The notes under the pieces are model-generated. The model worked only from the letters and a program-made list of their open reading frames with translations. It was not told where the DNA came from and did no database searches. The position numbers and the translations under genes are program-made. From assembly GCA_958296035.1 (NCBI GenBank), contig OY282431.1:2214037-2278036 (forward strand): a stretch of 64,000 nucleotides of DNA, given 5' to 3'. Origin of the DNA: Paracoccaceae bacterium. Lineage in GTDB: Bacteria > Pseudomonadota > Alphaproteobacteria > Rhodobacterales > Rhodobacteraceae. Below, one piece after another: positions 20,652-44,709 of the stretch (the first letter of the stretch is position 1; each line of letters starts with the position of its first letter).

Positions 20652-21068
20652 CCTGCCACGGGTCTGGCTCGGTGCTCGGCAAGACCAGAACCTACGGTCC
20701 AGGTCGCGACAAGCCGTCTTCGGGTCGCATTACCTGTCCATTGGTCTTGTCAGGACCGTCGCCTCTTCGGCGGCTGATTACCAGTAATTCGCTGCAACCG
20801 CAACGAAATCGGCTGGCCGCGAACCGAATCCTCCGAGGATACTGACCTGTCGTCCGGAATCTCCACGGTGTCGCCAAAACGGGTTTGTGCTCGCTCTCCG
20901 ATACGCATTCATCCTGTTTGTAATTTGTTGTACGCTGCAACAAGTGATACAGAATCTACAAGGTGCCGACTACATGATTGCTGTAGCCTTCCAAATTGCC
21001 CGGTGCTTAGCCATTCGAAAGAGAGCACATCCCAGATGCACGCTGCATCCCGTGGTTTGGAGAGATGC

Positions 21069-22229
21069 ATGACTGATTCACATCGAATTCTATTCGTGGA
21101 CGACGAACCGGATGTTAAGCCTCTGATTATTCAGAGGATGCGGCGGGAAATCAGAAAGGGCGTCTACAGCTTCGAGTTTGCCGGCAACGGTCTTGAGGCA
21201 ATTGACGTGTTGACCGCCGATTCGACAATCGACCTGGTCGTATCCGACATCAACATGCCAGGCATGGATGGCCTTACCCTCTTGAAGCAGATCCCGGCGA
21301 TCAACCCCAACATCAGGGCAATCATCGTTTCTGCATATGGTGACATGAAGAATATCCGTCGAGCGATGAACCTTGGCGCATTCGACTTCGTTACCAAGCC
21401 GATCGACTTCGTGGATCTTAAACTCACCATCCAGCGAACCATGTCACACCTTATCAAGTGGCGAGAAGCGCTTGCGTCTCGTGACAAGCTGATCTCGTTG
21501 AACAATGAATTGTCGCTGGCCAACAAGATCCAGCAATCGATTTTGCCTACCGTCCTCCCGCGAACAGACAAATTTGAAATCTTCGGTCGCATGGAACCGG
21601 CTCGGGATATCGGTGGCGATTTTTTCGATGTCTTCAGGTTATCCGACACGCAGACCGGACTGGCCATCGCCGATGTATCGGACAAGGGAATACCGGCGGC
21701 TTTGTTCATGATGTCGAGCCGAACACTGCTGAAGGGGTCGGCGATCGGTGATCCCAACCCGGATCGAGTCCTCGGAGAAGTCAACATGCTTCTCAATCAG
21801 GAAAATCCTGCCGGAATGTTTGTTACGGTACTTTATGCCATCTTCGATCACCGAAACAGTACCGTAACCTTCGCCAATGGCGGGCACAACCTTCCATTAC
21901 TCGTAAAGTCAGATGGGAGTTCAAGTTATCTTGGTCTGCCTAGTGGAATCGCTCTGGGCGTGTTTGATGGCTTCGAATACGAGGTCACTGAATGCCAGCT
22001 TACACCTGGCGATCACCTTGTACTTTACACCGATGGCGTAACCGAAGCCATGAATGTGGATGGAGACCTGTTCGGAGAAGACCGATTGCAGGAGATTATA
22101 AAGGAGTCGGTAGACCGCAAAGAAAGGGATTTGACCCGACCAATTGTTGAGGCCGTGCATGTCTTCAGCAGTGGGGTGCCTCAGTCCGATGACATAACCT
22201 GTTTGACGCTGACTATACGGGGGGGTTGA
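21069..22229 (+). CDS. response regulator fused to a PP2C/SpoIIE-type serine phosphatase (RsbU-like)
   Basis: Receiver domain (ILFVDDEPDV, VVSDINMPGMDG, FDFVTKP). PP2C motifs (GGDFFDV, IADVSDKGIPAAL, YTDGVTEA, DDITCL). Start set to MTDSHRILF (ATG 21069). Confidence 0.85.
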   Translation: MTDSHRILFVDDEPDVKPLIIQRMRREIRKGVYSFEFAGNGLEAIDVLTADSTIDLVVSDINMPGMDGLTLLKQIPAINPNIRAIIVSAYGDMKNIRRAMNLGAFDFVTKPIDFVDLKLTIQRTMSHLIKWREALASRDKLISLNNELSLANKIQQSILPTVLPRTDKFEIFGRMEPARDIGGDFFDVFRLSDTQTGLAIADVSDKGIPAALFMMSSRTLLKGSAIGDPNPDRVLGEVNMLLNQENPAGMFVTVLYAIFDHRNSTVTFANGGHNLPLLVKSDGSSSYLGLPSGIALGVFDGFEYEVTECQLTPGDHLVLYTDGVTEAMNVDGDLFGEDRLQEIIKESVDRKERDLTRPIVEAVHVFSSGVPQSDDITCLTLTIRGG

Positions 22230-22657
22230 CCGTGCCTCTTAATCAGTTGAGTTTTCGCATCGATTACGTTGAGAACCAGTGGAAGATGATCGACGACGCT
22301 GTAACCTTGTTGTCATCCATGGAGGCCTGGTCACCGGATGTAGAAAGTAATGTCAGGCTGTTTGTCGAAGAATTGTGCCTGAATCTCCTCTCGCATGGCG
22401 CTGCGTCGACCGAAACGTTCTTTGAAGCAGACCTGATCTGTACAGGCGATGCGGTGACGTTTGTTCTTCGCGATACCGGGCCAAAATTTGACCCACTGAC
22501 TGACGTAGCAGAACCATCTCTAGATGCGTCAATCGAAGATCGTCCACTCGGAGGATTGGGCGTTCATCTTGTACGCTCTCTTGCTGACGACATGACCTAC
22601 GAGCGCAAGGACGGCCAAAACGTTGTTACAGTGGTTGTAAGAAGGAACAACGAATAA
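22226..22657 (+). CDS. anti-sigma regulatory factor / RsbW-like serine kinase (HATPase_c)
   Basis: 143 aa with an N-box-like EELCLNLLSH, a G1-like RDTGPKFDP and a G2-like GGLGVHLV. TTG start overlaps the upstream stop (TTGA). Confidence 0.75.
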   Translation: MTVPLNQLSFRIDYVENQWKMIDDAVTLLSSMEAWSPDVESNVRLFVEELCLNLLSHGAASTETFFEADLICTGDAVTFVLRDTGPKFDPLTDVAEPSLDASIEDRPLGGLGVHLVRSLADDMTYERKDGQNVVTVVVRRNNE

Positions 22658-23338
22658 GAAGCTTGTACAGTGACCGCCGCCAAATCGGGTTTGGTGCCGG
22701 GGCTCTCTACAGTTGAGTCCGGCATTTGAATGTCGTCGATGTTCGAGCCTGGCAAACACAGGGCGAGTAATGTCCGCACATGGCAATTTACCATCGGGTC
22801 CCCTAACCTTCAGCCCCCGAACCGACGAATTGCTCGGAGTGACGCAGGCGTTTCGCGTCAAGGCCTCGCTAAAGTGCGGTTGTGTACAATTGCCGATTGC
22901 CATGGAGCGGACCGGTCACTGCCTATCTTGGGAGTTCGCGGTGGACTAAGGGCCATCATCGAATGTGCACCGGGCGGGCAGCAACAAAAGGGTCACCGAA
23001 CTCCCCTGGAGCGCAGTGTCGGGAACGGCGGTAGCGGGAGATGATGCACTCCCGTAAAGTGAGAAATACCCTGACTGCTGCAGTCCAGGACCTGACTGGA
23101 CCAGGGTCGGCTTGAAGGCACTGTTGAATAGTGGGCTCTTCCGTGGAAATGTGCTGTAATCGGGGTTGTATGGTCGAGCATGCCCGTACACTCGCTTTTG
23201 GTCGATCTCTGGACGACAGGGAATCACTCGCACCGGGAAGTCAGACTTTCAGTGAATTGCGGACGCCACTGAAACCGACGGAATGGAAACTGGGCGGGCT
23301 CCTGCGGCTCTCTGGCCGCAGTATCCCCGGCAAACTGG

Positions 23339-26152: not shown

Positions 26153-26888
26153 TGATCAACAACCCCGACAATGGCAGGAGTCGCGTTTCGCGCTCCTGGC
26201 GCAGCAACATGCCAAATCTCTCGTCTACACCGAGAAATGTTCCCTCCAGCAATTTACCCTGCCAACTGATGGCGATTTCTTCACCCATGTCCCGGACCAG
26301 ACCTTTCCATTCCCGATGAACAGCCATGGCGCCATCCTCAATCCAGCGATTGATCCAGACCAGGGTGTGGCGTGACCAGCTTTCGAGAAGACTGACCGGA
26401 CTGACTTCGACGCACCCCTCCTCATATAGGGATGTCTGCTCGGGATTGACTCCAGGTGCATCCCTATTGACCGGAATGATTTGCAGCATGAACCCGACAA
26501 TCAGCCAGTCCGGACATTGCCCTGGATCGTTGGTGGACGAATTTGTCCGGAATTGTCCGCATGATGCGCCGTTGACATAGATTTCTCCCGTCCATCCGAG
26601 GTGCATTGATACCTCCGGCGGAGCCAGTGCACCCAGCGCATTCTGCAACCCCACACCGCATACGGGAAGCATGGTCATGGCCTCCTCAAGCGGAACTTCG
26701 GGAGCCAGTATCATTGATGCCGACATACGGTCCGCTGCAAGGTTATAGGTTACGGTACCGGCTTCGCATCCAAGTGCAGCCATGGCACTCGCCTTGGCAA
26801 ACGGATCCAGCGAACCGGTAATCCGCAATCCCTGGAACAATGGCGGGAAGTGCGGTTCGGCGGACGCATCCATTATGTTGCCACGCAT
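26139..26888 (-). CDS. biotin/lipoate-protein-ligase-family-like protein (BPL/LPL catalytic-domain-like)
   Basis: 249 aa. Blocks such as ILAPEVPLEEA and GALAPPEV...VNGASCG resemble the BPL_LplA_LipB-like proteins found next to mrp. Assigned from memory of the family, not from a search. An alternative start is at 26873. Confidence 0.55.
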   Translation of the reverse strand: MRGNIMDASAEPHFPPLFQGLRITGSLDPFAKASAMAALGCEAGTVTYNLAADRMSASMILAPEVPLEEAMTMLPVCGVGLQNALGALAPPEVSMHLGWTGEIYVNGASCGQFRTNSSTNDPGQCPDWLIVGFMLQIIPVNRDAPGVNPEQTSLYEEGCVEVSPVSLLESWSRHTLVWINRWIEDGAMAVHREWKGLVRDMGEEIAISWQGKLLEGTFLGVDERFGMLLRQERETRLLPLSGLLINAGK

Positions 26889-27943
26889 TTCCTGACCTGC
26901 CTGGCCAGATTCTGGAAGATCATTGCGGATTGCTTCCCGGGATGCGAGGCAACCACCGGAATACCAGCATCCGCTCCTGTCCTGATCTTGATGTCGAGGG
27001 GAATGTTGGCGAGCAATGGCACACCCAGTTTTTCAGCCTCTGCTGCCACACCCCCCTGCCCGAACAGGTGCTCAACGTGGCCGCAATTGGTACATTCGTG
27101 CGTCGACATGTTCTCGACCATGCCCAGGATCGGAACCTTCATCGTATTGAACATGTCTATACCCTTTCGGGTGTCGAGCAGGGCAATGTCCTGGGGGGTA
27201 CAGACAATGATTGCTCCGTGGACCTGTACTCTCTGGCACAACGTCATCTGCACATCGCCTGTTCCTGGCGGCAAATCGACGAGCATGATGTCAAGTGCTC
27301 CCCACTGGACCTGGGTCAACATCTGGCTCAAGGCTCCCATGAGCATCGGCCCGCGCCAGACGACAGCCTCATCTTCAGCAGTCAGCAGCCCCATCGACAT
27401 CATCGTGACACCGAGGTTTCGCAAGGGAAGAATGGTCTTGCCGTCAGGCGATGACGGTCGGCCCGAGATACTCAGCATGCGCGGTTGAGATGGACCGTAA
27501 ACGTCACCGTCGAGAAGTCCTGTCCTGCATCCGAGTGAGGCCAGCGCGACAGCCAGATTTGCAGCAACGGTGGATTTTCCGACGCCGCCCTTCCCCGAAG
27601 CAATGGCAACAATTTTGTCGACACCGGGGAGCTTGCCGGGGCCGGTGTTGCTGGCGGCACGGGCAGGCTTGAGGTCAGGAGGAGCATCCGGGCTGGACTG
27701 GTGTGCAGTCAGCACGACCGATACGGTATCAATGCCGGGAAGTTGTGCGACCAGCTTCTCGGCTTCTGCCCTGGTTTCGGCCAGGCGCCCGGCATGAGCC
27801 GAGTGGGCCTCGATCACGAATCTGACCGCCGGGCCCTCCACAATCAGGCCCCTCACCATACCGGCAGATACGATGTCCTTCCCGCTTATCGGGTCGATGA
27901 CCGTTCCCAGTGTGTCAAGAACGACTTCTCGAGTTGAACTCAT
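26873..27943 (-). CDS. apbC: Mrp/NBP35-family Fe-S cluster carrier ATPase (ApbC)
   Basis: Deviant Walker A IASGKGGVGKST, CTNCGH cluster-ligand motif, N-terminal DUF59-like domain. Confidence 0.9.
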   Translation of the reverse strand: MSSTREVVLDTLGTVIDPISGKDIVSAGMVRGLIVEGPAVRFVIEAHSAHAGRLAETRAEAEKLVAQLPGIDTVSVVLTAHQSSPDAPPDLKPARAASNTGPGKLPGVDKIVAIASGKGGVGKSTVAANLAVALASLGCRTGLLDGDVYGPSQPRMLSISGRPSSPDGKTILPLRNLGVTMMSMGLLTAEDEAVVWRGPMLMGALSQMLTQVQWGALDIMLVDLPPGTGDVQMTLCQRVQVHGAIIVCTPQDIALLDTRKGIDMFNTMKVPILGMVENMSTHECTNCGHVEHLFGQGGVAAEAEKLGVPLLANIPLDIKIRTGADAGIPVVASHPGKQSAMIFQNLARQVRKCVAT

Positions 27944-28143
27944 TCGCCCCTGCTGGTGATGGTACCCACGACCACATGATTCAGATCAAGCTCGTTGCAG
28001 GTCAACTCGGCCTTGATTTCAAACTTGCGGCCCGCCGGATTCTCCAGCTCGGCGTTGCGGATTGCATCCTCGATTGCACGCTGCGAGGTCACGCCCACCC
28101 GCTTGAGAAACTTGCGCATGCTCATGTTGAATTCGTCGCTCAC
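27940..28143 (-). CDS. small conserved hypothetical protein (DUF6494-like)
   Basis: 67-aa ORF. Its stop overlaps the apbC start (ATGA). First gene of the operon. Confidence 0.6.
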   Translation of the reverse strand: MSDEFNMSMRKFLKRVGVTSQRAIEDAIRNAELENPAGRKFEIKAELTCNELDLNHVVVGTITSRGE

Positions 28144-28759
28144 CTCGTTGTCTCCCGTGCTGTGGTTTCATGGTTTGGTGTCGGCAGAGGCATTGAAGGC
28201 ATTTGGGTATCCGCGTGGCAAAGATCGCTGAGCCAATTTCTGGAAGCCGCAACATGCCAGGAGCAATCCGGCTGCCTTGTCAAAGTCTATTAGTGGGTTT
28301 TACGCAAGCAGGCAAAATATTTGGTGTGTTCCCTCAACTATCACCCATGCTGCGGCACTGTCGCATCGAAGAGGCCGATCCCGCGCAGTTGGGCCATGGC
28401 TAAAACGCGCGGGTCAATGGCAGCAATCCCCGGAACCGTTCGGGTACGACATGCGCAAGCATCATAATGTTGGAATGACGTGGCCTTGCTCGCACCAGCA
28501 ATTTGCATAGTCGCAACAGTTCCTGGCATCCTCCTTCTCGAAAGTCGGCATACGCACCGTCGACCCATCAACAATCCGGCATGTGGAGTAGAGCAACTCA
28601 GCTGAGCCGGCTGCTGCCAGGGGCTGGGTAGTCGCCATCAGTATGATGTCCGACACTGGCCGGTCTGGAATTACTTGCACTGGCCTTGATCCGGTATCAA
28701 GGTCACAAATCCTATTGGCGCTGAAGAGAACCTGGTAACAAGAGACGAGAGCAGTCCAT

Positions 28760-31700
28760 ATGCAGTTTGTAAGAAACGGCCCCGACGTCCCTGAACGCTT
28801 GCTTCAGGCGCATGAAGACTGTCGTGTTGTCTTTTTCTGCGGTTCAGGAATCTCCTTCCCCGCCGGTTTGCCAGGATTTTCTGGCTTGGTAAAACAGCTC
28901 AGTGACCACTTTGGGTACCTTAGTCCAGAGCAAGCCAATGCAATTGAAGCCAAACAGTATGACAGGGCCGTAGGTTTGCTTGAGCGTGACGTTGCAGGCG
29001 GGCGGCAGATTGTAAGGCGGAAAATTGCGGACATTCTTAAACCGGATCTAAACCGACCACGAGCCACAGACACTCATCGGGCACTGCTCGAATTGGCGAG
29101 ACACAATCAGCAACAGGCAAGGTTGATCACAACCAACTTTGACCGGTTGTTCGAGCATGTAATTGTGGAAGATGACCTCACCATTGGGAGTTTTGAGGCT
29201 CCGTTGTTGCCAATTCCAAAACAACGCTGGGACGGTTTGGTGTATCTTCATGGTCTGCTGCCTGAGGATCCTGACGACAGGGGTCTTGACAATCTGGTCG
29301 TCTCAAGTGGCAACTTCGGGCTTGCCTACCTCTTGGAACGCTGGGCTGCGCGCTTTGTCACCGAATTGTTTCAAAATTTCACTGTGTGCTTTGTCGGTTA
29401 CAGCATTGATGACCCGATCTTGCGTTACATGACGGATGCCTTGGCAGCGGATCAACAGCGTGGTGAAGCGCCAACCGAGATGTTTGCATTTGGATGTTAC
29501 TCCAAGGGCAAGGAAGTCTCTTGCTCCAATGAATGGCGTGCCAAGAATGTCACACCTATTCTCTACAAGAGTTACTGGCGTCATGCCTATCTGCATCGAA
29601 CTCTCCGGAAGTGGGCCGATGATCATCGGGACGGTGTATTGGGAAAGGAGAGAATTGTTTTTGATTACGCCGGCAGACACCCTTCCATGTCTACTAACGA
29701 GGACGATTTTGTAAGTCGCATGCTTTGGGCGCTGAGCGATCCAAGTGGGCTTCCTGCCAAGCGTTTCGCTACCTTCGATCCGGCTCCCACCCTCGATTGG
29801 CTTGATTCGCTAAACGACAACAGATTCGGTCATGACCATCTAATCCGTCTATCTCCATGGATGGCCCTAGCCGGTAATGGATTGAACTGCGGACTGGATC
29901 AGGTAACGCGCCACCTGGTGGACTGGCTGACCCGGCATCTCAACAACCCCAAGTTGTTTTTCTGGCTGGCCAAACAGGGAGGGCGGCCGCATCCGGATTT
30001 TCAAAGGAAGTTGTCAAACCGATTGATCCACCTCGCCAAGCTGGAGGACAGCAAGCATACCGAGGAGCTGAACAAGATTCGAGAAAATGCGCCAGATGCA
30101 ATCCCTGATGCCCCGATGCGAGTGCTGTGGGATCTGCTTTTCTCTGGGCTGGTGAAGTCGCATGGCCAGGACCTGTCTTCGGATGACTGGTTGATACGCT
30201 TCAATAATGAGGGATTGACAACCGCCCTGCGTCTGGAACTCCGTGCATTGCTGAGTCCGCGTGTATCCTATAGCGAACCATTCAATTGGCCAGCCCAATT
30301 GGATGATGGTGGAGAGGAGGATACGCATAGTCGGACCCTATCTGACATTATAAGCTGCGAAATCGTACTCTCAAAATACAGTATTCACGACACCCTTTAC
30401 GAGTTAAGGGATAATAGACACTGGACCACCGCGCAGCCAGTGCTGCTCTCCGACTTCACCGGGCTGTTACGTGATGTCCTCGACCTCAAGCGAGAGATGG
30501 GAGGGGCCGACGACTGGAGCGACGAATCATACTTTGACCGACCTTCAATTAGCGAGCACAGTCAGAATCGTGATCGTCACGACTGGACGGTACTGATAGA
30601 CTTAACTCGTGATGCGTGGCTGAAAACCGCAACTCGGTCATGCGAGTGCGCACGGCATGCAGCCGAGAACTGGTCACGAATTCCCTACCCCCTCTTCCGC
30701 CGTCTCGCGTTTTTTGCGGCAGCCAATGGCAATATCATTGCCAGTGACCAAGCGCTTGAGTGGCTGTTGGCCGACGAAGGGTGGTGGCTGTGGTCAAATG
30801 AAACACATTGGGAAGCTATGCGGCTGCTGGCAACCCTGGCTCCGCGCCTGAATTCTGAGGGGTTGGCCAAGCTTGAGCAAGCCATACTTTCCGGACCGCC
30901 GCGCAACATGTTCGTCACTGACTTGCAAGCGGAAAGATGGACGTACATTCAGGAACGTGGCATTTGGCGTCGGTTAGCCAAGATTGACGATGCCGATGTC
31001 CAGTTGGCTCCTTCCGCACGGGATCAGATGAGCAGGCTTTCGGAAAAGTACCCGGACTGGCAGCTTGCCGACGACGAACGCGAGGAATTCCCTACCTGGC
31101 GGCCATCAGGGCTACGAGTTCCAGAACGGTTGCCGCGTGAGCCGGATAAACTTATCAACAGTCTAAGGGAAAATCCCGGCTCTGGCTTCCGGGAGGATGA
31201 TTGGTCAAAGATTTGCCGCGACGAGTTTGAACTTGCATCGTCAGCACTCATTGCACTGGCCAATCAAGGAATTTGGCCCGAAGGTCGCTGGAGAAAAGCA
31301 CTATCCCAATGGACTGAAGATGAGCTTACACAGGATTCATGGTCCAGGATGGCCCCGGTAATTGCCAAAATGCCTGAATCCACGCTGTACCAAATTCGGT
31401 ATGGATTGAGTTGGTGGCTAGAAGAGCTTGCAAAGACCGTTGAGGGACAAGAGGAAACGTTCTACCGGTTGTGTGACCGTCTGCTGAAACTAGCTTATGA
31501 GGTCGCAGATGACTCCAATGACCATGTCAACAAAGCAATAAACCATCCGGTGGGGCATGTTACCGAAGCACTTCTCAACAAGTGGTACAGAAGCGAGCCT
31601 CAAGCCAACCAAGGTCTCGTTGAACCGATACGTGACAGGTTTACCTGCCTTTGCAGTACCTCGGCGCAGAAATACCGACACGGGCGCGTGATGCTTGGCG

Positions 31701-32458
31701 CAAACATGTGGTGGTTATTTTTGGTCGACCCCTTGTGGACCGTCAAGTTCATGCTACCGCACTTCGATTGGGGAAGCAAAGAAACTGAGGCAGGCCCCAT
31801 GTGGGAAGGCTTTCTATGGACATCCAATTTCTATGAGCCCTTGATGGAGCACCTCAAGCCGGCGTTCCTGGAAACAGCAAATCATTTCGACCAGCTAGGT
31901 GGGCACAAACAACGCTTTGCTTCCCTGTTGACATTCGGTGCTCTCGAACCGCGCGATTTCTGCACAAATACTGAAATGAAACATGCCTTAAGCTCATTGC
32001 CGACAGAAGGTCTAGAACAAGTTTCTGCATCGTTGGTTAAATTGATCAACAGTGTCGGTGACAAACGCTCCAATTACTGGGAGAACAGGGTAGCACCGTT
32101 TCTGAGGGACATCTGGCCGAAGTCAGCCGACCGCCTTACGGAACAGGTTTCAGCAAACCTTGCCCGGGCGTGTATAGCCGCAGGAGACGCGTTTCCCGAC
32201 GCCCTCAAAGAGATCGAACCGTGGCTGAAACCGCTGAACCACCCTCACCGAATAGCGTGTGAACTGCACAGTTCAAAGCTTATCGCCCAGTTTCCTGAGC
32301 TGACGCTTGATCTTCTTCGTCGAATCTACCGAGATCAGGCACAGTTGTTTCCCAATGAATTGGCGAAGTGCCTAACTAGAATAAAGTCTGCGAAATCAGA
32401 ACTCAGTGAAGATCATCGTTTCGAGTATCTGGATAAAATCTTGAGTAAGTCCGGTTAA
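28760..32458 (+). CDS. SIR2-domain (SIR2_2-type) protein with a roughly 900-aa uncharacterised C-terminal region; DSR-like NADase defence candidate
   Basis: 1232-aa uninterrupted ORF. Ordered motifs: VFFCGSGISFPAGLPGF, ITTNFD (N126), VYLHG (H164), FVGYSIDDP. No P-loop. Confidence 0.85.
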   Translation: MQFVRNGPDVPERLLQAHEDCRVVFFCGSGISFPAGLPGFSGLVKQLSDHFGYLSPEQANAIEAKQYDRAVGLLERDVAGGRQIVRRKIADILKPDLNRPRATDTHRALLELARHNQQQARLITTNFDRLFEHVIVEDDLTIGSFEAPLLPIPKQRWDGLVYLHGLLPEDPDDRGLDNLVVSSGNFGLAYLLERWAARFVTELFQNFTVCFVGYSIDDPILRYMTDALAADQQRGEAPTEMFAFGCYSKGKEVSCSNEWRAKNVTPILYKSYWRHAYLHRTLRKWADDHRDGVLGKERIVFDYAGRHPSMSTNEDDFVSRMLWALSDPSGLPAKRFATFDPAPTLDWLDSLNDNRFGHDHLIRLSPWMALAGNGLNCGLDQVTRHLVDWLTRHLNNPKLFFWLAKQGGRPHPDFQRKLSNRLIHLAKLEDSKHTEELNKIRENAPDAIPDAPMRVLWDLLFSGLVKSHGQDLSSDDWLIRFNNEGLTTALRLELRALLSPRVSYSEPFNWPAQLDDGGEEDTHSRTLSDIISCEIVLSKYSIHDTLYELRDNRHWTTAQPVLLSDFTGLLRDVLDLKREMGGADDWSDESYFDRPSISEHSQNRDRHDWTVLIDLTRDAWLKTATRSCECARHAAENWSRIPYPLFRRLAFFAAANGNIIASDQALEWLLADEGWWLWSNETHWEAMRLLATLAPRLNSEGLAKLEQAILSGPPRNMFVTDLQAERWTYIQERGIWRRLAKIDDADVQLAPSARDQMSRLSEKYPDWQLADDEREEFPTWRPSGLRVPERLPREPDKLINSLRENPGSGFREDDWSKICRDEFELASSALIALANQGIWPEGRWRKALSQWTEDELTQDSWSRMAPVIAKMPESTLYQIRYGLSWWLEELAKTVEGQEETFYRLCDRLLKLAYEVADDSNDHVNKAINHPVGHVTEALLNKWYRSEPQANQGLVEPIRDRFTCLCSTSAQKYRHGRVMLGANMWWLFLVDPLWTVKFMLPHFDWGSKETEAGPMWEGFLWTSNFYEPLMEHLKPAFLETANHFDQLGGHKQRFASLLTFGALEPRDFCTNTEMKHALSSLPTEGLEQVSASLVKLINSVGDKRSNYWENRVAPFLRDIWPKSADRLTEQVSANLARACIAAGDAFPDALKEIEPWLKPLNHPHRIACELHSSKLIAQFPELTLDLLRRIYRDQAQLFPNELAKCLTRIKSAKSELSEDHRFEYLDKILSKSG

Positions 32459-32661
32459 GAACTGATACGCCTCTCCATGCGGTAAGTATTCAACACTTGC
32501 TAACTGGACTTGCGGGCAACCAATACCCACTAGAGCTTGGCTGTCCACCGATTTGGTTTCGTCTCCTGGTGGTAACATGCAAGGGACCATTGCCCCTTTG
32601 TTCATTCAGCGCTCCTGCCAGCAGTAGAAACAAGACTGCGACGCGCCTATGCGTTTATTAA

Positions 32662-33759
32662 TCATTGGAGCCACATCCCTTCGTTGCTCAGGATGACCTG
32701 TGTGCAGTAGGCCAGTCTACGCCAGGCACTGCGGTCATCGACAATCTGCTCGAAGCACTGGCGGTGGTAGTCGCTTGCGGCAAAGAGTATGCCAGTGCGC
32801 ATTCTGCAAATCTCTCATTGCAATGGTCACAACCAAGGTATGTGAATCACAGTTATCAGGTAATGACACTCCCCCTTACGGTACCTTCTAGATGGGGGCC
32901 GCTAGGTGAGAATAAATTTGTTGCGGTAAAATTGACCAGCCTAGAATTATTCATGGCGTTCCGTTCCCGGAAGAGTAGCCAACACGGAAGAGTCGAAATC
33001 GGCCGACCGTGGTTGGCCGACCCTGTAACACTTCCTCGCACAGGCTATCACTGGGGCTCCTCCACTCAATTCAACCAGCATCGTCTTGGATGTGTGTGCC
33101 TTCTTCTGTGCAGGGTGATGAATTTCATAATGCGGTATTTTGACCTCAATCCGACCTCTATCACCTATTTCTCGCATGCTCTTGGCAACCGAAGACATCC
33201 TGCAGGCAATTTTACGAATTCGCTGGCATCAAGACAGTCCAGCATGGCAGCAAACCCAATTGCATCGCCGACCGCCACTATCCCCTCGGTGGTTCGCCCA
33301 TAGTCATCTACAGACCGAGTCGCTTCACTGCATCTCTACTGGTCTGTGCGGTACCACACATACATGTTCTTCGGGTCGGAAACTCTACCTCATCTGAAAC
33401 CCTCTGAATGCCAACTAGCGAATTTTGCAATTGAGCTTGCTCAGCATTTTTCGCCTTCAAGGAGAGGCAGCACAGTGTAGGACGTCTGGAGTTGGAGTCT
33501 ATCAGCCCAAGCGATAATTGATTGATTGCATTCTTGCAGCAGGTACGCTCCGCCGGCATCCTGTAGATTTGCGAGAGTTCTGCTGTCGCAATGCGATGAT
33601 ATTCTTGTATTACGATACCGTTATGGCTCCCGGTTCGTTTACATTATCCAGGCAGGAATCAATAATTGCCCACTTTCCAGAGCCAATGTGAACAACTATG
33701 CATTCACCATACCCTGGGCCAAATATAGTGACCTCAATCTCGTTCAATTGCGGCTTCAT
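32662..33759 (-). pseudogene. decayed gene; the N-terminus resembles an MBL-fold (ComEC-type beta-lactamase-like) protein
   Basis: ATG at 33759 overlaps the end of the upstream gene. The first 49 codons (MKPQLNEIEVTIFGPGYGECIVVHIGSGKWAIIDSCLD...) end in a stop at 33610. The reading then continues through at least 5 frame changes or stops (fragments 33308-33559, 32947-33198, 32856-33041) and ends ...VILSNEGMWLQ* at 32662. Confidence 0.35.
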
Positions 33760-34387
33760 CTTCCCAAACGATTGCCTCTACAAGAGCCTCGGCCTTTTTG
33801 TATGCTCTCTTGTAATCTCGCTCAGAATGGGCGGGGAGCCTGCGGAAGTACAATTCTGACACATTTCTAACTTGCCCTGTATGCAGGCGCTCACGTCCAA
33901 TGACCCATCGTACGATAGCGCCTTCCTTGAGCAAGTGTTGGTCGTATTCGCAAATGTCCAGCTTGCGAAAGTCAGCGTGATCGACTGGCAAAGGAGAATT
34001 TGAGCGGACATCCACCATTCTCACTGAAAACTTGTCCTCCGTGATGTATTCAACGTATCCTTCAAACTCCGCTATTGGGGTTAAAGTTCGTCTTTTTCTG
34101 GGCTTTGTCATGTGTGGATGCCATCTCGAAACCAGTGGTGCAACCCTTTTGGCACTCATTTGGACAACCGTTTGACTTGACTTGTTGGAATTTGCGTTGG
34201 ATCGATGTGGCGTGGTACTACTTAATTCAGCAGGCCTGTTTGGAGTTTGAGTTTCGGGGGCTAGTGCAACATTGACAATGCTATTTGCCATTCCAACGAA
34301 CTCATCATCCGGCACTTGCCTTACGCTGGAATGAACTTCTCCATCCAGATGGTTGAGAAACTCTGGACTCTGAGCAAAGGTCTTCAT
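33734..34387 (-). CDS. hypothetical protein
   Basis: 217-aa intact ORF starting 2 nt after the upstream stop. Low-complexity Ser/Asn/Thr linker, then a basic KPRKRR stretch and a structured-looking C-terminal half. No family recognised. Confidence 0.6.
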   Translation of the reverse strand: MKTFAQSPEFLNHLDGEVHSSVRQVPDDEFVGMANSIVNVALAPETQTPNRPAELSSTTPHRSNANSNKSSQTVVQMSAKRVAPLVSRWHPHMTKPRKRRTLTPIAEFEGYVEYITEDKFSVRMVDVRSNSPLPVDHADFRKLDICEYDQHLLKEGAIVRWVIGRERLHTGQVRNVSELYFRRLPAHSERDYKRAYKKAEALVEAIVWEDEAAIERD

Positions 34388-34389
34388 TG

Positions 34390-35068
34390 TTATGCGTCCA
34401 ATCTCATTGTAGTCTCAATTATGGTGTCAGCTTCCTCCGTAGCTGGTTCAAATTGTTCCATCAGCAAGGTCATCGCCTGCTCGCTTCCATGGTCAGCAGG
34501 CAAATCGGTCAGCAAATGATGACTGTTGACATGCATGTAAACCCCCGTGTTGTCCTTAATTCTAACAGATGGCTTGATCGTTAAATTAGTCTCCATTTGC
34601 ACTCCCCCCACCAACGACTTCTGTGTCATTGACAAACTCTGTAGTCCGCCCGTCAATTCAACGTCATCCGTGTCCATTTCTTGGCCAAATTGACCCCAAT
34701 GCTCAATCGGTGCCAGATTTCTGCCAAGCCGCACCCGTGAAGATAGGCTTGGCAAGCAGAAATGAACCTGGCAATTTTCACCGACCGCAGTGATTGGAGC
34801 ATTAAACAAATGTCCTCCGAATATCTTGTTAGTGATATCCAGGACAGTCACCCAAGGAGCAGCAGTAGTCTCAATCCGATTGTAGTACGTAGGAGCGGGT
34901 TTCAATTGAAAAGTTTGAAACTTGAGGGAGAGACAACAAGTCGCTGACATGTGAGGTGGCTTCTGGCTCAATCCCCCTAGCTTCTAGCCATGCCGGATGT
35001 AGAATTGCAGGATTGAACTTTCCCAACAAGACGATCAAGCACGCTGATATACCAGGTTGAATAACCAT
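34390..35068 (-). pseudogene. hypothetical protein interrupted by a frameshift
   Basis: Two overlapping ORFs in different frames (34871-35068 and 34390-34971). A single-base change within the 34871-34971 overlap joins them into roughly 225 aa; one candidate site is the T4 run at 34909-34912. Confidence 0.5.
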
Positions 35069-36070
35069 TTGGGGGAATCCTGGGCCCGTTTTCCTTCTTT
35101 CTACTTGGTGGAGCTTGAATGTGCCAGTTCAATCAACCCATAGTTGGGCAACAAAGAGCATGAGTTAGTGGAATCCTGCTGTCGTCCGACGTGTGCGATC
35201 AAGGCCCATGGCAGGCCTTTGATGACCGACCGGTAGCAGATCTACTTGCCAATTCTAGCATCAATCTTGGATGTGCAGTTCATGTCTTGGTGAGAAGGAT
35301 GCCATGTTCCTGCAACGCATGCCTAATCCAAGGCACTGATCGGTGCACCGAAAACAGACCTCAAAGGGCGCAGGGGTACGAGTAAGCGGGAGACAAGCCG
35401 GACTTGCCACCGCATCAAGCGGATCATCCTCACATAGGCTATAGGGAGTCCATAGGCTCGATTCACTACAAGGCAGCTACGAGGCCTCGTAATCGGCTGA
35501 CTGTGGTCAAATATTCCTTTCATCATACAGCGCCGCCTTGCGCCGAAAACCTCTTTGGCCCCTTTGGAAGCCTTGTCCAGAATTGCCTTGAGGTGTCCCT
35601 TTAATCCGATTTCACACAGCTCTTGCCTATCGAAATCTGCCTGCCGGTAGTTTCTTCGACTTCATAGCCAACGGCGCGGGCAACATTGTCCGATTGGCAC
35701 GGCAATTTCGACATTTGATGTCAGATTCTGGCTTTCTGCATCTCTGGAGACTCGCTTTGAATTCGGCGACCTACTCTGTGATGGAACTTGCAGGAAGTCT
35801 TAAACCCTATGAATTCTGAGCCACCAACTGTTTGGTGACCATGGTTGGAGTCAGGCAGCTTAGGCGGTATTTGGTGAATTGAACTCCAGCGGCAGCTATG
35901 AACCGCCGACACGCTGTGGCATTCAGAGTTTCCTGCTACCGAAACGTGACGGTGCTTTTGTATTGCGATACAATGATGACTCTCGGCGCGGGGACCGACA
36001 TTGAAGCCAGAGCACTGAACAAAGCGGGAGGCATGTTGCCATGCCATTTCTTATGGAGGGTGGATATCGC

Positions 36071-36880
36071 ATGGACCGTTTGAATTGGTGGCTGCGATTG
36101 GTGCTTGCTGGAACCCTGCTCATTGGCGTGAATTCAAGTGCCGCATTGGCCCAGCAGAAAACGATTGTCGTGGCAGCCAGTCCAGAGCTTGTTGAGTCCG
36201 GACTTGCAGATTTCTTGTACCCGCGGTTTTCCTTCAAGCACAATGTTCGGATCAGGCCAGTTGAGCTGGGAAGCCTGGAGGCCGTCGAAGCGCACATCTG
36301 GCTAGGTCCTGAAACCACGGTCGAAAGTGGTACTCCTGTCCTCGTTCAGGGAGATACAATCTACAATCTTGAGATTCGTCCCCGGGAAGCAGACGCCGAT
36401 TCAACAAAAAGTGCACAAAAGTTACTGGATTGGCTGATTTCCGACATTGGAAAGACGACTGTACGTGACTTCGAAAACGGTGAAGGGTTGAAATTCCTTC
36501 CCGTCGAGGAGAAGGCCACTGTTCGAATTCAGCCCGTCGTAAGAACCGATGTTTCAGAAGGTCTGGAATTGTCACTTCAAAAGTGTGGCCGGTGCCACGT
36601 TGTAGGTGCAGTCAACCGGATGCAGGGAATTGGATCGACACCCTCATTCCATATGTTGCGAACGCTGCCGGACTGGGAAGACAGATTCTTCGTATTCTAT
36701 GTGCTGAATCCCCATCCGGCTTTTATCCAGATTACCGATGTCACACCGCCATTTCGGGAACGCCAACCTCCACCCATAGAACCGATCGAACTCACACTTG
36801 AACATATCGACGCAATCGTAGCCTACGTATCAACGCTTGAACCGGCTCGGCTAGGACAGCCGCTTGCCAATAATCCGTAA
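36071..36880 (+). CDS. secreted protein: TupA/ModA-like N-terminal lobe fused to a c-type haem (CxxCH) region
   Basis: Signal peptide MDRLNWWLRLVLAGTLLIGVNSSAALA. IVVAASPELVESGLADFLYPRF resembles the TTS..SGL block of tungstate-binding proteins. Single CGRCH motif. Start set to ATG 36071. Confidence 0.65.
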   Translation: MDRLNWWLRLVLAGTLLIGVNSSAALAQQKTIVVAASPELVESGLADFLYPRFSFKHNVRIRPVELGSLEAVEAHIWLGPETTVESGTPVLVQGDTIYNLEIRPREADADSTKSAQKLLDWLISDIGKTTVRDFENGEGLKFLPVEEKATVRIQPVVRTDVSEGLELSLQKCGRCHVVGAVNRMQGIGSTPSFHMLRTLPDWEDRFFVFYVLNPHPAFIQITDVTPPFRERQPPPIEPIELTLEHIDAIVAYVSTLEPARLGQPLANNP

Positions 36881-37060: not shown

Positions 37061-38995
37061 CTAGTCGTTGGCGGTACGAGGTAGTGGCCTTGCACCTGCC
37101 GCGAATGGACTGTTCTCCGAGTGATACTGTGACAAGATTCGACAGTCGTCGCACATTTTCATCAGGCGGATTGTACTCTCGTTGCTGAACATGGAATGCT
37201 TGTTGGCGAGCTGGCCGGTAATGCGCTCAATCATCGACCGGACGCCGAACGCCTTGCCGCATTCGACACACAGAAATGGTTCTTCCTCGTTTAGAACCGT
37301 GATTTCCATGCTTTCTTTCCCGAGATGAAACCGGGGCTCGAGCGTGATTGCGCTCTCCGGGCAAATCTTGCTGCAGAGTCCACACTGAATGCAACTATCC
37401 TCCTGAAACCTCAACTCGGGACGTTCAGTGTTGTCTCTAATTGCCCCCGTAGGACAATGCGCCGAACAGGCCATGCACAATGTGCAAGCCTCAGTATCGA
37501 CCGTAATTGCGCCATATGGAGAACCCGGAGGCAGCGGTAATGGTGCATCGACGTCTGGATTTAGTGCAAGCGCAGCCATTCGGGCCACTTGCTTTCGAGT
37601 TCCAAGCGGGAGAATCGGTTGCTCCAGCGAGGTCAGATTTCTCTCATACAGTAAATCGCTCAGTTCATCAGGATCACTTACGTCGAGCAGACGAATACGA
37701 TTCCCTGTTCCGATGCACTCGGCCAGGTGCATCTGTGATTTCAGCGTGTCCGTCGGCGTGGCTGGCGATGGCAGCAGCACGACCTCGGCAAAGCCAACGC
37801 CAATTGCCGCCAGCATCTCTGCGTGGCCAAACCCGGAAATCCCTTCCATTGCCATGGGAATGACATCGGCGGGCAGACCTCTTCCATAACGGGCAGCCAG
37901 GCTGATCATCTCACTTCCATATTGGGCTGTGTGAACCAGCAGCCGCGGGTTGTTCCCGCCTGTCTTGCGGAATGTACTGGCGAGAACTTCCATGCGCTTG
38001 AACAGGTGCTCAACCGACGGCCATTCATGTGTTATGGCTGAGGCCGGGCACACTGCAGCGCATTCACCGCATCCGGCACACACCATGGCATCAATCGAAA
38101 CATGATCGCCGGCTGGTGATATTGCTCCGGTCGAACAGGTATCAAGACAGCGCGTGCAACCTATCTGCTTTGATCTGCTATGCGCACATAATGATTCATT
38201 GAGCCTTACATAGAGCGGTTTTTCAAAGCTGCCCACAAGTTGGGAAGCCTCGAGAATTAGCTTGCCCACGGCGGCCGGGCGGCCGGGGTCCGCTCTGAGA
38301 TAACCATCACGTTTTTCCGGCGCCACGAAGAGGCTGATTCCCTTTCTTACGTCGACAATGATGTCGCATTCGCTCGCGGCGCCGTCGCGAGGCGCCGTGA
38401 ACCCGAAGCTGCCACGACCGCCAGGTACAATCTGACGCAGCGCGTCGAGCTTGACTACAAATCCGCCAAAGGCACCAGTAGCCGAACGCAGCTTGCCAAT
38501 CACGACATCAAACATGCGGTCGACAGGAACGTCGTCTGGCTCGGCTTCCAGTAGCACTGTAACGGATAGCAAATTGGCCAGTTGAGTGGCTATGTCCATT
38601 GCGATTTCGGTCTGCCCAAGAACCAGGCAAAGACCTTCCGATTCCACATCAACCAAGCGCGTCTCCGGAGTCGGCAACATCGCCTCTGCCACCAGAGAGG
38701 CTTGTTTGGGACCCGCCTTGTCTGCCTCATCTGACCACCCGGCGCGATCGCGCAAGTCTACTAATCCGGGTGCATCAACCGCCAGAGACGCCGCGATTTC
38801 TTCAAATCTGGCCCTCTCCTGCTGGCAGGCAATGATTACGGAACCACTGGACAGTGACCCTTCGACGAGATTGGCCTGAGTGGTGCAAAGCGATGTGTGC
38901 ACAGACGAGCAGCGGCCGGGGAAAGCCGCAGAGATAGCAGCTGTGTCAAGTTCCTGACTGCCGAGGCAGTCACATAGCATCAGCGTTTCTGTCAT
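37061..38995 (-). CDS. multi-[4Fe-4S] ferredoxin-domain protein (FDH-cluster associated)
   Basis: 644 aa with CTRCLDTCSTGAI, CAGCGECAAVCP, CTLCMACSAHCP and CIQCGLCSKICP motifs plus C-terminal CVECGKAF...CDDC. Confidence 0.85.
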   Translation of the reverse strand: MTETLMLCDCLGSQELDTAAISAAFPGRCSSVHTSLCTTQANLVEGSLSSGSVIIACQQERARFEEIAASLAVDAPGLVDLRDRAGWSDEADKAGPKQASLVAEAMLPTPETRLVDVESEGLCLVLGQTEIAMDIATQLANLLSVTVLLEAEPDDVPVDRMFDVVIGKLRSATGAFGGFVVKLDALRQIVPGGRGSFGFTAPRDGAASECDIIVDVRKGISLFVAPEKRDGYLRADPGRPAAVGKLILEASQLVGSFEKPLYVRLNESLCAHSRSKQIGCTRCLDTCSTGAISPAGDHVSIDAMVCAGCGECAAVCPASAITHEWPSVEHLFKRMEVLASTFRKTGGNNPRLLVHTAQYGSEMISLAARYGRGLPADVIPMAMEGISGFGHAEMLAAIGVGFAEVVLLPSPATPTDTLKSQMHLAECIGTGNRIRLLDVSDPDELSDLLYERNLTSLEQPILPLGTRKQVARMAALALNPDVDAPLPLPPGSPYGAITVDTEACTLCMACSAHCPTGAIRDNTERPELRFQEDSCIQCGLCSKICPESAITLEPRFHLGKESMEITVLNEEEPFLCVECGKAFGVRSMIERITGQLANKHSMFSNESTIRLMKMCDDCRILSQYHSENSPFAAGARPLPRTAND

Positions 38996-41915: not shown

Positions 41916-42151
41916 ATCGAGTCATTCCTAATCGTGAATACAGTGCTCGTCGACATCTTGCATAACTTTGTTAGAGACACAATAAGGGCTAGTTAACGTC
42001 CATATATTGTGGTTCTAGAGAATATTTCTGCTTGACACCTCTGCCCCTTCGTGCTAGAGAACGTCATGCTCAAGTTCGACAGTACATCACCGTATCCAGC
42101 CCCGTTCGGGCCGCTTTTCCAGCCCCGAAAAGCGCCATCGGGAGGTCGGTC

Positions 42152-43879
42152 ATGACACCGAAACGGGCCCTCGAAAAGGCACTGGCTGAACGGAATGCAG
42201 CACGAAAAGACGTCGCCTCTCTCACACAAGAAATTGCCTCTCTCAGGCGTCAGATAGAGTGGTTCAAGCGCCAGCTCTTCGGCGCCACATCCGAACGGCA
42301 GACGGTCAGGACGCCCGAGCAGGGACGCGACATGTTCGAGGCCGCCGGCGTCGAGTCCGGCGCCGAGACCGCCCCGTCATCCGATGATGACGCGCCGGAT
42401 GACCCGTCGACTTGTGCCGGTCAGGCCGAGGAGAAGAAGAAACGCAAGCGCGGCAAGAAGAAGCGTGGCCCTGCCGTCAATGACAGCGGTCTGCGCTTTG
42501 ATGCCGATGTTCCGGTCCAGGATGTGTATCTTGAACCGGAGGGTCTTGACGGCATTCCCGGGGACGAACTCGAGAAGGTCGGCGAGCATGTGGTCTGCAA
42601 GCTGGTCACCCGTCGCGAGACCTCGCACGTCGCCCGCTTCATCATGCCGATCTACAAGCGCCGCGAGACCAACGCCTTCCTCCCGGTTCCGACGCCCCCG
42701 TCGGTCTTCGAGAGCAGTTGCGTCGATGTCAGTTTCATCGCCCGTATGCTGATCGACAAGTTCATCTGGCATATGCCCCTCAATCGCCAGCACCGGCGTC
42801 TGTCTGCGGACGGCATTGAGGTCAGCCGCTCGAGCCTCAGGGGCTGGGTGCGACGTGCGATTGACCTTCTCTGTCCGCTGGCCGAGGCGCAGTGGCGCTC
42901 TGTCCTGGCGAGCGATGTCATCATGATGGACGAGACATATCTCCGGGCCGGCCGGATATCACGGGGCAAGATGCGCCGCGGCGTGTTGTGGCCGGTGCTG
43001 GGCGACCGGGGCGAGATTGTGTTTCATTACCGGCCCGATCGCCAGCACCATCATGTGGGGGGCATTCTGGGCGACTGGTCCGGGGTTTTGCACAGCGATG
43101 GCTATGGGGCTTATGCGGCCTGGTCGGAGGCGATGTCGGGACGGGTTGCGCATGCGTTGTGCTGGGCGCACACCCGTCGCAAGTTCGAGGGCTGCAAGGA
43201 TCATGAGCCCGAGCATGCGGGGCGTGCTCTGGCGTTGATTGCCAAGATGTACCTGACCGAGCGGGAGGCGCGTGCGGACGGCACATCGGGGGTTGCGTTG
43301 CTGGCTGCCCGTCATAAGCTGCTGGCGCCGGCGATGGCGGCCTTCTGGGAGTGGCATGGGACGATGCTGGCGCGTGACTGGTTGCCGAAGGATCCGTTCT
43401 ACCAGGCTCTGTGTTATGCCGGAGAGCGGCGTGCCGGGCTTGAGGTGTGTCTGGGTCATGCCGGTGTTCGTCTGGATACCAACGAACTGGAGCGCCAGAT
43501 CCGCCCCATAGCGACGGGTCGCAGGAACTGGCTGTTTGCCTGGAGCGAGGCCGGTGCCCGCGACATCGCCACCATCCAGTCCTTGCTTCTGACCTGTCAA
43601 TTGCAGTGTGTTGATGTCTGGACCTGGCTGGTCGATGTCCTGCAGCGTGTGGCCCTGCATCCGGCCCGGCTGGTCGAGGAGTTGACGCCCCGCCGCTGGC
43701 CAGACGTGTTTGGTGCGGCGCCCTTGGGCTCGGTTGTCAGTCAGCGGCCCTTCGGCGGTTCGGCCGGCGTCTATACCCCGGACCCGGAACGGCCCTGTGC
43801 ATCTCCCCGGGCCGGCATGGCGGCGCCGGGACAGCCCATTCCGATGTCACCTCTCAAGCGGTCATGGCGACAATCCTGA
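42152..43879 (+). CDS. tnpC: IS66-family transposase TnpC
   Basis: N-terminal coiled coil plus LFGATSERQ. DDE region (MMDETYL, HSDGYGAY, CWAHTRRKF). GGAGG Shine-Dalgarno sequence 7 nt upstream of ATG 42152. Unusually long C-terminal tail. Confidence 0.85.
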   Translation: MTPKRALEKALAERNAARKDVASLTQEIASLRRQIEWFKRQLFGATSERQTVRTPEQGRDMFEAAGVESGAETAPSSDDDAPDDPSTCAGQAEEKKKRKRGKKKRGPAVNDSGLRFDADVPVQDVYLEPEGLDGIPGDELEKVGEHVVCKLVTRRETSHVARFIMPIYKRRETNAFLPVPTPPSVFESSCVDVSFIARMLIDKFIWHMPLNRQHRRLSADGIEVSRSSLRGWVRRAIDLLCPLAEAQWRSVLASDVIMMDETYLRAGRISRGKMRRGVLWPVLGDRGEIVFHYRPDRQHHHVGGILGDWSGVLHSDGYGAYAAWSEAMSGRVAHALCWAHTRRKFEGCKDHEPEHAGRALALIAKMYLTEREARADGTSGVALLAARHKLLAPAMAAFWEWHGTMLARDWLPKDPFYQALCYAGERRAGLEVCLGHAGVRLDTNELERQIRPIATGRRNWLFAWSEAGARDIATIQSLLLTCQLQCVDVWTWLVDVLQRVALHPARLVEELTPRRWPDVFGAAPLGSVVSQRPFGGSAGVYTPDPERPCASPRAGMAAPGQPIPMSPLKRSWRQS

Positions 43880-43933
43880 CCACACGACACATCCCTGACC
43901 TGGCCTGAGGCGAGGCCGGCCGGCCCGGCGCCG

Positions 43934-44287
43934 TCAGGCGGCCCGGGCGTACCGTTTGCGTTGTCTTGACTTGATGATGTCGATGCCGTCGACCAGCGCC
44001 ATGAGCCCGGTGGCCGAGACCGGCTCGGCCGGATTGCTGGAGATGAGCCGGGTAAAGAGGCCGCTCTCCAGGCGCTTGGACCAGATCCAGTAGCCGCCCC
44101 GGTCGAAGGCGATGACCTTGAGCATGGTGCGGCGTCGATTGAGGAAGACATACCAGTCCCCCGAGATCGGGTTGCGGCCGAGGCGGTTGCGCACCAAGGC
44201 CGAAAGCCCGTCATAGGACAGGCGCATGTCGGCGGGTTCGGTGGCCAGCCAGATGCGGCCCCGGCCGGGAAAGCCGGACCCGATCAT
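43934..44287 (-). CDS. tnpB: IS66 Orf2-like protein TnpB
   Basis: 117 aa from MIGSGFPG (ATG 44287, ATGA overlap with tnpA). Motifs DMRLSYDGL and VFLNRRRTMLKV. Confidence 0.85.
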   Translation of the reverse strand: MIGSGFPGRGRIWLATEPADMRLSYDGLSALVRNRLGRNPISGDWYVFLNRRRTMLKVIAFDRGGYWIWSKRLESGLFTRLISSNPAEPVSATGLMALVDGIDIIKSRQRKRYARAA

Positions 44288-44610: not shown

Positions 44611-44678
44611 CTGTTGTCACGGGATTGACCGAATTCAGATGATCGGAGAACAGATGCTGATCGTCAACAGCTAATCAG

Positions 44679-44701
44679 GACGTACCAGTTTGCCCGCTTA
44701 C
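44679..44701. repeat. IS66 terminal inverted repeat (right)
   Basis: Reverse complement of 41893-41915. Confidence 0.9.
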
Positions 44702-44709
44702 GCGCAATC
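44702..44709. repeat. 8-bp target-site duplication GCGCAATC (right copy)
   Basis: Identical to 41885-41892. Confidence 0.85.

Follow-up and report, generated by a model that had tools for sequence, protein, structure and literature searches.

The gene at positions 28760-32458 (plus strand) of the DNA analyzed here encodes a protein of 1232 amino acids with a SIR2 domain at the N-terminus and a very large C-terminal region, and raises the question which type of sensor this region represents. The DNA, below called the window, is a 64,000-nucleotide stretch from a Paracoccaceae bacterium (GenBank assembly GCA_958296035.1, contig OY282431.1, positions 2,214,037 to 2,278,036 of the forward strand). 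An initial annotation, made from the letters alone, had described the product as a DSR-like candidate for an anti-phage effector that depletes nicotinamide adenine dinucleotide (NAD+), with a C-terminus that could be homologous to the sensors of DSR1 or DSR2 or could be new. Our analysis indicates, with a probability of roughly 85%, that the protein is a divergent orthologue of Dsr1 (defense-associated sirtuin 1), a single-gene anti-phage system, and that its gene reached a Rhodobacterales-like alphaproteobacterial chromosome by horizontal acquisition of an 8-kb insert. The results below establish the family to which the protein belongs, its domain architecture, the integrity of its catalytic residues, and the organization of the system as a single gene in accessory DNA.

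Assignment to the Dsr1 family

The open reading frame (ORF) of the monocistronic dsr1 gene starts with ATG and continues for 1232 codons with no interruption, as had been stated for this 3.7-kb frame. The N-terminal sequence MQFVRNGPDVPERLL lines up with the conserved N-terminus of the family in an alignment with 30 relatives, and this coincidence indicates that the start codon is correct. The product scored 1594.9 bits against the NCBIfam equivalog model NF041818 ("anti-phage defense-associated sirtuin Dsr1") and passed its curated cutoff of 1400. Among the PADLOC profiles, Dsr1 model PDLC02183 gave 1344 bits and Dsr1 model PDLC04167 aligned residues 1-1228 of 1232 with positions 1-1239 of its 1248. 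A third Dsr1 model, PDLC04166, matched only the N-terminus of the protein, and the same scan gave no match to a Dsr2 model.

BLASTP with two annotated Dsr1 proteins of E. coli (WP_073507471.1 and WP_094058323.1, neither of which is the experimentally tested EcDsr1, WP_029488749.1) yielded collinear alignments over residues 1-1226 of 1232 with 43-44% identity. The E. coli proteins have a length of ca. 1260-1275 residues, and the difference is mainly due to a 25-residue deletion in the linker of the window protein. A search for relatives among 5.8 billion proteins returned one identical singleton, encoded on a contig of 3.64 Mb, followed by hundreds of full-length relatives of ca. 1260 residues with 51-57% sequence identity, several of which, at full coverage, carry the NCBI or UniRef name "anti-phage defense-associated sirtuin Dsr1". 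Megablast of the gene and its neighborhood against E. coli genomes, plasmids and phages gave nothing useful.

The features shared with Dsr1 (Gao et al. 2020; Lee et al. 2026) include the SIR2_2 domain with its invariant Asn and His, the helical sensor of ca. 830 residues that is collinear to the C-terminus, the single-gene organization and the location in mobile or accessory DNA, in addition to the score above the equivalog cutoff. Unlike E. coli Dsr1, the protein occurs in an alphaproteobacterial (Rhodobacterales-like) host and its gene adjoins neither an integrase nor a type I restriction-modification (R-M) system.

Since the equivalog cutoff was passed, the PADLOC Dsr1 model covers residues 1-1228 and E. 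coli Dsr1 aligns end to end, the C-terminal region is, as judged from sequence homology, the known Dsr1 sensor and neither DSR2-like nor new. The DSR-like reading of the initial annotation, i.e., a single large protein with an N-terminal SIR2 domain, a C-terminal sensor and a predicted function as anti-phage NADase, is supported by the Dsr1 profiles and the alignment. The possible novelty of the sensor had to be given up, since an end-to-end alignment with Dsr1, which had itself been named beforehand as refuting novelty, was found. Similarly, the description of the ca. 900-residue C-terminus as unassigned is correct for Pfam but not for the curated full-length Dsr1 models, which cover it.

SIR2 effector domain

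Residues 1 to ca. 290 (28760-29629, plus strand) constitute a predicted NADase effector domain of the SIR2_2 type, recognized by its Pfam match, family conservation and predicted fold. The match to SIR2_2 (PF13289) spans residues 122-267 and is significant (E=2.2e-18, 67 bits with a cutoff of 24.5). The four motif blocks listed in the initial annotation are all present in the order given, with VFFCGSGISFPAGLPGF at residues 24-40, ITTNFD at 123-128, VYLHG at 161-165 and FVGYSIDDP at 211-219. The predicted catalytic residues are Asn126 (codon 29135-29137, plus strand) and His164 (29249-29251, plus strand). A 31-sequence Dsr1 alignment shows no variation at either residue, in the GxG Rossmann motif or in the GYS..DP block.

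Pfam detected no domain besides SIR2_2 in the protein at E≤0.3. A Walker A or P-loop motif was not found either, as noted earlier, and the Pfam and PADLOC scans of the protein revealed no NTPase family. The classical sirtuin family PF02146 was absent from the Pfam matches at E≤1, and the family profile matched SIRT2 and SIRT3 chains in the PDB with E values of only ca. 0.04-0.7 over 45 residues. Weak N-terminal matches to PADLOC models for ThsA, LmuA and generic SIR2 proteins (E=1e-6 to 5e-4) were restricted to the SIR2 domain. The ThsA models matched only residues 17-230 (E=8e-6), and no SLOG or STALD domain was matched past residue 230, which agrees with the earlier statement that a SLOG motif is lacking.

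An AlphaFold2 (AF2) model of residues 1-420 had a mean predicted local distance difference test (pLDDT) score of 64, with values in the 80s for the core. The best Foldseek matches of this model in the PDB were KomC (E=7e-7), ThsA (E=2e-6) and the SIR2 domain of DSR2 (E of ca. 1e-5), with template modeling (TM) scores, relative to the target, of ca. 0.6. A PDB search with the family profile gave only weak matches to SIR2 N-terminal domains, in which the N-terminal Rossmann motif aligned with KomC. Among solved structures, ThsA (Thoeris) and KomC (Kongming) come closest to the fold of the N-terminal domain. These proteins are activated by small-molecule signals via SLOG or partner proteins in multi-gene systems. 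The window protein, in contrast, has no SLOG domain and no partner. The features of Thoeris, a SLOG/STALD C-terminus and a ThsB partner with a TIR domain, were not found, as the ThsA models stop at residue 230 and no TIR neighbor is present. The central NTPase module of Avs5 and other SIR2-STAND proteins was also not detected, since a Walker A motif is lacking and neither Pfam nor PADLOC recognized an NTPase family.

Sensor region

The Dsr1-type sensor comprises residues ca. 401-1232 (29960-32455, plus strand; ca. 830 residues) and was delineated with the full-length Dsr1 hidden Markov models (HMMs), a sensor-only search and AF2 modeling. Past residue 300 the protein contains 4.2% Trp and 13.1% Leu, and the AF2 model of residues 290-1232 (mean pLDDT 79) is all-helical except for one small hairpin. 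The Trp/Leu-rich, helical character noticed in the initial annotation was thus confirmed. The region was also called non-repetitive, which holds for the sequence but not for the model, which is a repeat-like α-solenoid.

Comparison of the sensor model with the PDB using Foldseek gave only HEAT/ARM solenoids of a generic kind, among them karyopherins and the PP2A scaffold, with TM scores of 0.15-0.29. No DSR2 chain and no other defense sensor was among the 50 best matches listed. At the sequence level, a single-sequence search of the PDB was empty and the family profile gave no match to the sensor. A solved Dsr1 structure was not found in the PDB copy that was searched. With the sensor alone as query against 1.8 billion representatives, 2,737 cluster representatives were retrieved, the top 150 of which were all Dsr1-like. 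We also considered that other N-terminal effectors, e.g., that of Avs7, might be fused to the same sensor, but the shorter sensor-only hits among these 150 turned out to be N-terminally truncated Dsr1 proteins.

DSR2 of Bacillus subtilis resembles the predicted organization of the window protein in having an N-terminal SIR2 NADase and a large C-terminal α-solenoid that senses a phage structural protein, and its SIR2 domain superposes on the SIR2 model of the window protein (Foldseek E of ca. 1e-5). Homology between the sensors, however, was not detectable by the PADLOC Dsr2 models or among the 50 best sensor-model matches listed. DSR2 senses the phage tail tube protein. The trigger reported for E. 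coli Dsr1 is instead the major capsid protein (PMC12803255). The same study describes the sensor of E. coli Dsr1 as homologous to the bilobed tetratricopeptide repeat sensor of Avs7, a STAND NTPase antiviral sensor, with the major capsid protein as trigger of both (PMC12803255). Unlike Avs7, the window protein lacks a STAND NTPase module and contains no Walker A motif. The sensor link to Avs7 was not recovered in our searches, in which the top 150 sensor-only hits were all Dsr1-like and no Avs7 chain was among the PDB matches listed.

Accessory location and single-gene organization

To the left of dsr1 the chromosomal backbone contains, on the minus strand, apbC (26873-27943), encoding an iron-sulfur carrier of the Mrp/NBP35 type with Pfam ParA and FeS_assembly_P matches, and a small DUF6494 gene (27940-28143), which was identified by its synteny and alignment with the relative L081. 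To the right follow a homologue of a 204-residue ORF (36257-36871, plus strand; tblastn identity of 43% over 205 residues) and a polyferredoxin gene with Fer4 domains (37061-38995, minus strand). In L081, the closest syntenic relative available (ApbC 70% identical) and the locus from which the 204-residue ORF is known, these flanking genes are contiguous, ca. 0.3 kb apart, and dsr1 is missing; between apbC and the polyferredoxin gene only the DUF6494 gene and the 204-residue ORF are present. Mapping by blastn and tblastn showed that the shared backbone ends at position 28142 of the window and resumes at ca. 36257. Because the flanking genes are contiguous in L081 and the backbone maps to either side, the region 28144-36256 is regarded as an insertion of ca. 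8 kb. Its G+C content is 0.51, compared to 0.56 in the flank.

The left flank additionally carries a gene of the lipoate/biotin ligase family and a DUF6505 gene, and Pfam assigned DUF3305, DUF3306 and a TorD-like gene past the polyferredoxin gene on the right. Named ApbC homologues are from Rhodobacterales (65-76% identity), and the affiliation of the host is based on them. At the boundaries of the insert no direct or inverted repeats were found, only short two-copy matches typical of chance, and counts of promoter and terminator signals did not exceed those in shuffled controls. No tRNA gene was present in the window and no integrase was found for the insert. The earlier claim that the gene lies inside accessory DNA is upheld by the synteny with L081 as well as by composition. 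A housekeeping role would be suggested by orthologues fixed at this site, and the closest syntenic relative available does not have the gene there.

Pfam gave no HerA, pAgo, TIR or ThsB domain for the ORFs called from 20.9 to 48.9 kb, and none of the five island ORFs had a PADLOC match. A SIR2-HerA system was not recognized, as there is no HerA among the neighbors and the island ORFs have no convincing match in Pfam, PADLOC, NCBIfam or PHROG. The only P-loop proteins encoded near dsr1 are ApbC and the ATPase of an ATP-binding cassette transporter.

None of the genes neighboring dsr1 in the window recurs beside Dsr1 in 80 other genomes. Over all 81 loci no flanking family occurred more than 13 times; the most common was HsdM (13/81), with HsdS and HsdR also seen. 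The single-gene organization proposed earlier is in agreement with this lack of a conserved partner and with the missing Walker A motif. In a sizeable minority of loci dsr1 lies inside a type I R-M operon (L005, 7059-13774; L017; L013), with HsdM and HsdS upstream on the same strand and HsdR downstream.

Relatives of Dsr1 are spread over Proteobacteria, Acidobacteria, Verrucomicrobia, Nitrospirae and other phyla, and were also found on plasmids and on 30 viral or prophage contigs of IMG/VR. Dsr1 is encoded in 75 of 5,426 complete E. coli genomes. At three of four E. coli loci examined (L083, L085, L086), a tyrosine integrase gene is directly followed by dsr1. This integrase belongs to a prophage-like element inserted beside yjjG, in which the position of dsr1 is moron-like.

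Proposed mechanism

Published work on other Dsr1 proteins suggests how the protein could act. DSR1 was found to lower NAD+ on infection; in the case of phi29, NAD+ fell only transiently and no culture collapse was observed (Garb et al., 10.1101/2021.12.14.472415). NARP1 and NARP3, two phage pathways that rebuild NAD+, overcome DSR1 (10.1101/2024.02.11.579819; PMC13464706). For E. coli Dsr1 the major capsid protein was the unique trigger in a screen of 73 genes (Lee et al., 2026 preprint, PMC12803255). In the same study, co-expression of Dsr1 with the phage major capsid protein led to cell death, and effector mutations abolished both toxicity and defense (PMC12803255). Dsr1 has been described as still poorly characterized (PMC13464706).

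By analogy with these proteins, the product of the window gene is most likely a phage-triggered NADase. The C-terminal all-α sensor (residues ca. 400-1232, ca. 830 residues) would keep the N-terminal SIR2 domain inactive. Upon infection the sensor would bind a phage protein, and this trigger may be the major capsid protein, which is the most likely candidate in view of E. coli Dsr1. A resulting conformational or oligomeric change would activate the SIR2 NADase, in which Asn126 and His164 are the putative catalytic residues, and the conversion of NAD+ to ADP-ribose and nicotinamide would starve phage replication. The NADase activity, the triggering by phage, the identity of the trigger and the outcome, cell death or transient NAD+ depletion, are thus proposed on the basis of the literature. 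The initial annotation spoke of a single-gene abortive-infection NADase. The single-gene and DSR-like parts of this description can be retained, but the term abortive infection is not firm for DSR1, since a transient drop of NAD+ as well as cell death have been reported.

Divergence of the protein and alternative explanations

Several observations weigh against the assignment as a Dsr1 orthologue that acts in the manner proposed above. The nearest sequence among the 5.8 billion proteins searched is only 57% identical. Identities to the relatives used for alignment are 52.7-56.8%, whereas these are 56-64% identical to each other, which makes the protein the long branch of the set; its identity to the E. 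coli outgroup is 44.5%, as compared to 46-54% for all relatives. At 28 of the 284 positions that are invariant in the other 30 sequences the protein carries a substitution, including two otherwise invariant Trp residues, while the others depart at 0-16 such positions. Furthermore, in the linker between the SIR2 domain and the sensor (residues ca. 291-400; 29630-29959, plus strand) a conserved 25-residue segment, FGVPPK..FSLxRRPxPY, is missing after Arg363 (codon 29846-29848). This segment is near-invariant in the 30 relatives and present in E. coli Dsr1. The same insert contains decayed cargo beside dsr1, which is compatible with relaxed selection. With respect to the mechanism, the capsid trigger is known from one preprint on a protein with 43-44% identity and the trigger may differ here. 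The DSR1 for which Garb et al. followed NAD+ over time had been cloned into B. subtilis, and it may or may not belong to the clade of the window protein. The name DSR1 may even cover more than one type of sensor, because PDLC04166 matches only the N-terminus of the window protein.

The linker deletion was examined further in 142 full-length Dsr1 sequences in which two anchors, RMLWALSD and RWLxRHL (residues ca. 327-389 of the window protein), could be located. The spacing between the anchors has the canonical value of 87 in 116 sequences, is 37-71 in 12 sequences and is 61 in the window protein. Because shortening or loss of this linker segment recurs in ca. 8% of the sequences (12/142, with the window protein counted), the deletion is read as tolerated variation within the family and not as a lesion, and we downgraded it as a sign of pseudogenization. 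The linker region has low pLDDT in both AF2 models, and the missing segment may be a loop that is dispensable or has a regulatory role. The Dsr1 sequences with shortened linkers share only 35-46% identity with the window sensor, so that the loss may have arisen more than once.

The most serious alternative is that the gene is an inactive or decaying copy of dsr1, of which the ORF is still open while the response to phage or the hydrolysis of NAD+ has been lost under selection that was relaxed since acquisition. The number of substitutions at otherwise invariant positions, which is the highest of the set (28/284 vs 0-16), would be explained by decay, as would the missing linker segment, a slightly raised rate of change as measured against the E. 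coli outgroup, the frameshifted and truncated three-gene cassette that adjoins dsr1, and the finding of the protein as a singleton cluster on one contig. All 1232 codons are open, however, 256 of the 284 invariant positions are retained, among them every catalytic and Rossmann-motif residue, the same linker is shortened in other full-length Dsr1 proteins, and the sensor was modeled with confidence (mean pLDDT 79). We therefore regard decay as unlikely. Also rather unlikely, though somewhat less so, is that in this long-branch Dsr1 lineage of a marine-type Rhodobacterales host, with its shortened linker and its substitutions at otherwise invariant sensor positions (two Trp residues among them), the trigger specificity or the mode of activation has shifted from that of E. 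coli Dsr1, e.g., toward another phage protein or a roseophage capsid fold.

It appears highly improbable that the protein is DSR-like but carries a sensor that is new or of the DSR2 type. Although Pfam is silent beyond residue 267 and neither sequence nor fold comparison with the PDB gave a sensor-specific match, the full-length Dsr1 HMMs span the sensor, the collinearity with E. coli Dsr1 extends to residue 1226 of 1232, and there was no PADLOC Dsr2 match, with DSR2 chains matching the SIR2 model only and missing from the list of the 50 best sensor-model matches. We consider this option refuted by the coverage of the Dsr1 HMMs and the alignment with E. coli Dsr1. Least probable of all are a sirtuin or protein deacylase with a housekeeping function and a member of one of the multi-gene SIR2 systems, e.g., Thoeris, SIR2-HerA, SIR2-pAgo or Avs5. 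The weak PADLOC matches to ThsA, LmuA and generic SIR2 models that point in this direction are confined to the SIR2 domain, and the protein lacks a SLOG/STALD match past residue 230, a Walker A motif and a Pfam match to the classical sirtuin family. Neither the Pfam survey of the neighboring ORFs for HerA, pAgo, TIR and ThsB nor the PADLOC scan of the five island ORFs provided a partner, and the gene is missing from the syntenic locus of L081. A divergent Dsr1 thus remains the preferred assignment.

Other cargo of the insert

Downstream of dsr1 the insert contains a decayed remnant of an uncharacterized three-gene cassette (33619-35068, minus strand), which was recognized by tblastn mapping of homologues in L087 and L088. 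In the window, gene 1 is frameshifted (34390-34971, minus strand), gene 2 is intact (33746-34387) and gene 3 is truncated after ca. 47 codons. Intact copies (L087, 6001-8409; L088, 6001-8412) encode products of 231, ca. 215 and 362 residues. None of the cassette proteins has a Pfam domain or a convincing PADLOC, NCBIfam or PHROG match; the sole library match is that of gene 2 to a PHROG family of unknown function, which is weak (E=4.3e-4). Since intact cassettes occur at unrelated chromosomal sites in other genomes, the cassette behaves like mobile cargo, and it may be a defense or accessory module.

A homologue of cassette gene 1 (35% identity over 122 residues) was found in L031 at 1963-2322. 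It precedes the Candidatus Azophilus Dsr1 gene by 8 kb, which may be a coincidence of defense-island cargo. The ORF directly downstream of dsr1 (32665-33303, plus strand) had no match in any library and is not conserved beside Dsr1 elsewhere. This ORF is probably not a real gene, or in any case has no relation to dsr1.

Other features of the window

A second accessory region encodes a 389-residue protein with DUF262/GmrSD_N and HNH domains (47770-48939, minus strand; PADLOC REase_II, 439 bits), which is probably a restriction nuclease, either modification-dependent or type II-like. An insertion-sequence cluster at 42032-45526 has a G+C content of 0.64, compared to 0.56 for the window. It consists of an IS66-family transposase gene (42032-43879, plus strand), an IS66 Orf2/TnpB-like gene (43934-44476, minus strand) and a DDE_Tnp_1 transposase gene (44675-45526, minus strand). 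The location of the two IS66 genes on opposite strands is unusual for one element.

At 56429-60229 (plus strand) a 1266-residue protein is encoded for which the sole library match was "choice-of-anchor R" near the N-terminus (NCBIfam NF041539, E=1.5e-23). The genes at 20868-23044 (plus strand), for a response regulator/SpoIIE (PP2C) phosphatase followed by an anti-sigma-type kinase with a HATPase_c_2 domain and a 104-residue ORF, look like a partner-switching regulatory module.

Significance for the Dsr1 family

The value of the finding lies mainly in annotation: it places a known NAD+-depleting defense gene in a chromosome of the Alphaproteobacteria and documents that the gene was acquired with an insert of 8 kb. 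The recurrent loss of the linker segment, in ca. 8% of Dsr1 proteins, provides a small structure-function lead, and the divergent variant described here, with its shortened linker, could help to map the parts of the linker and sensor that are needed for autoinhibition and trigger recognition.

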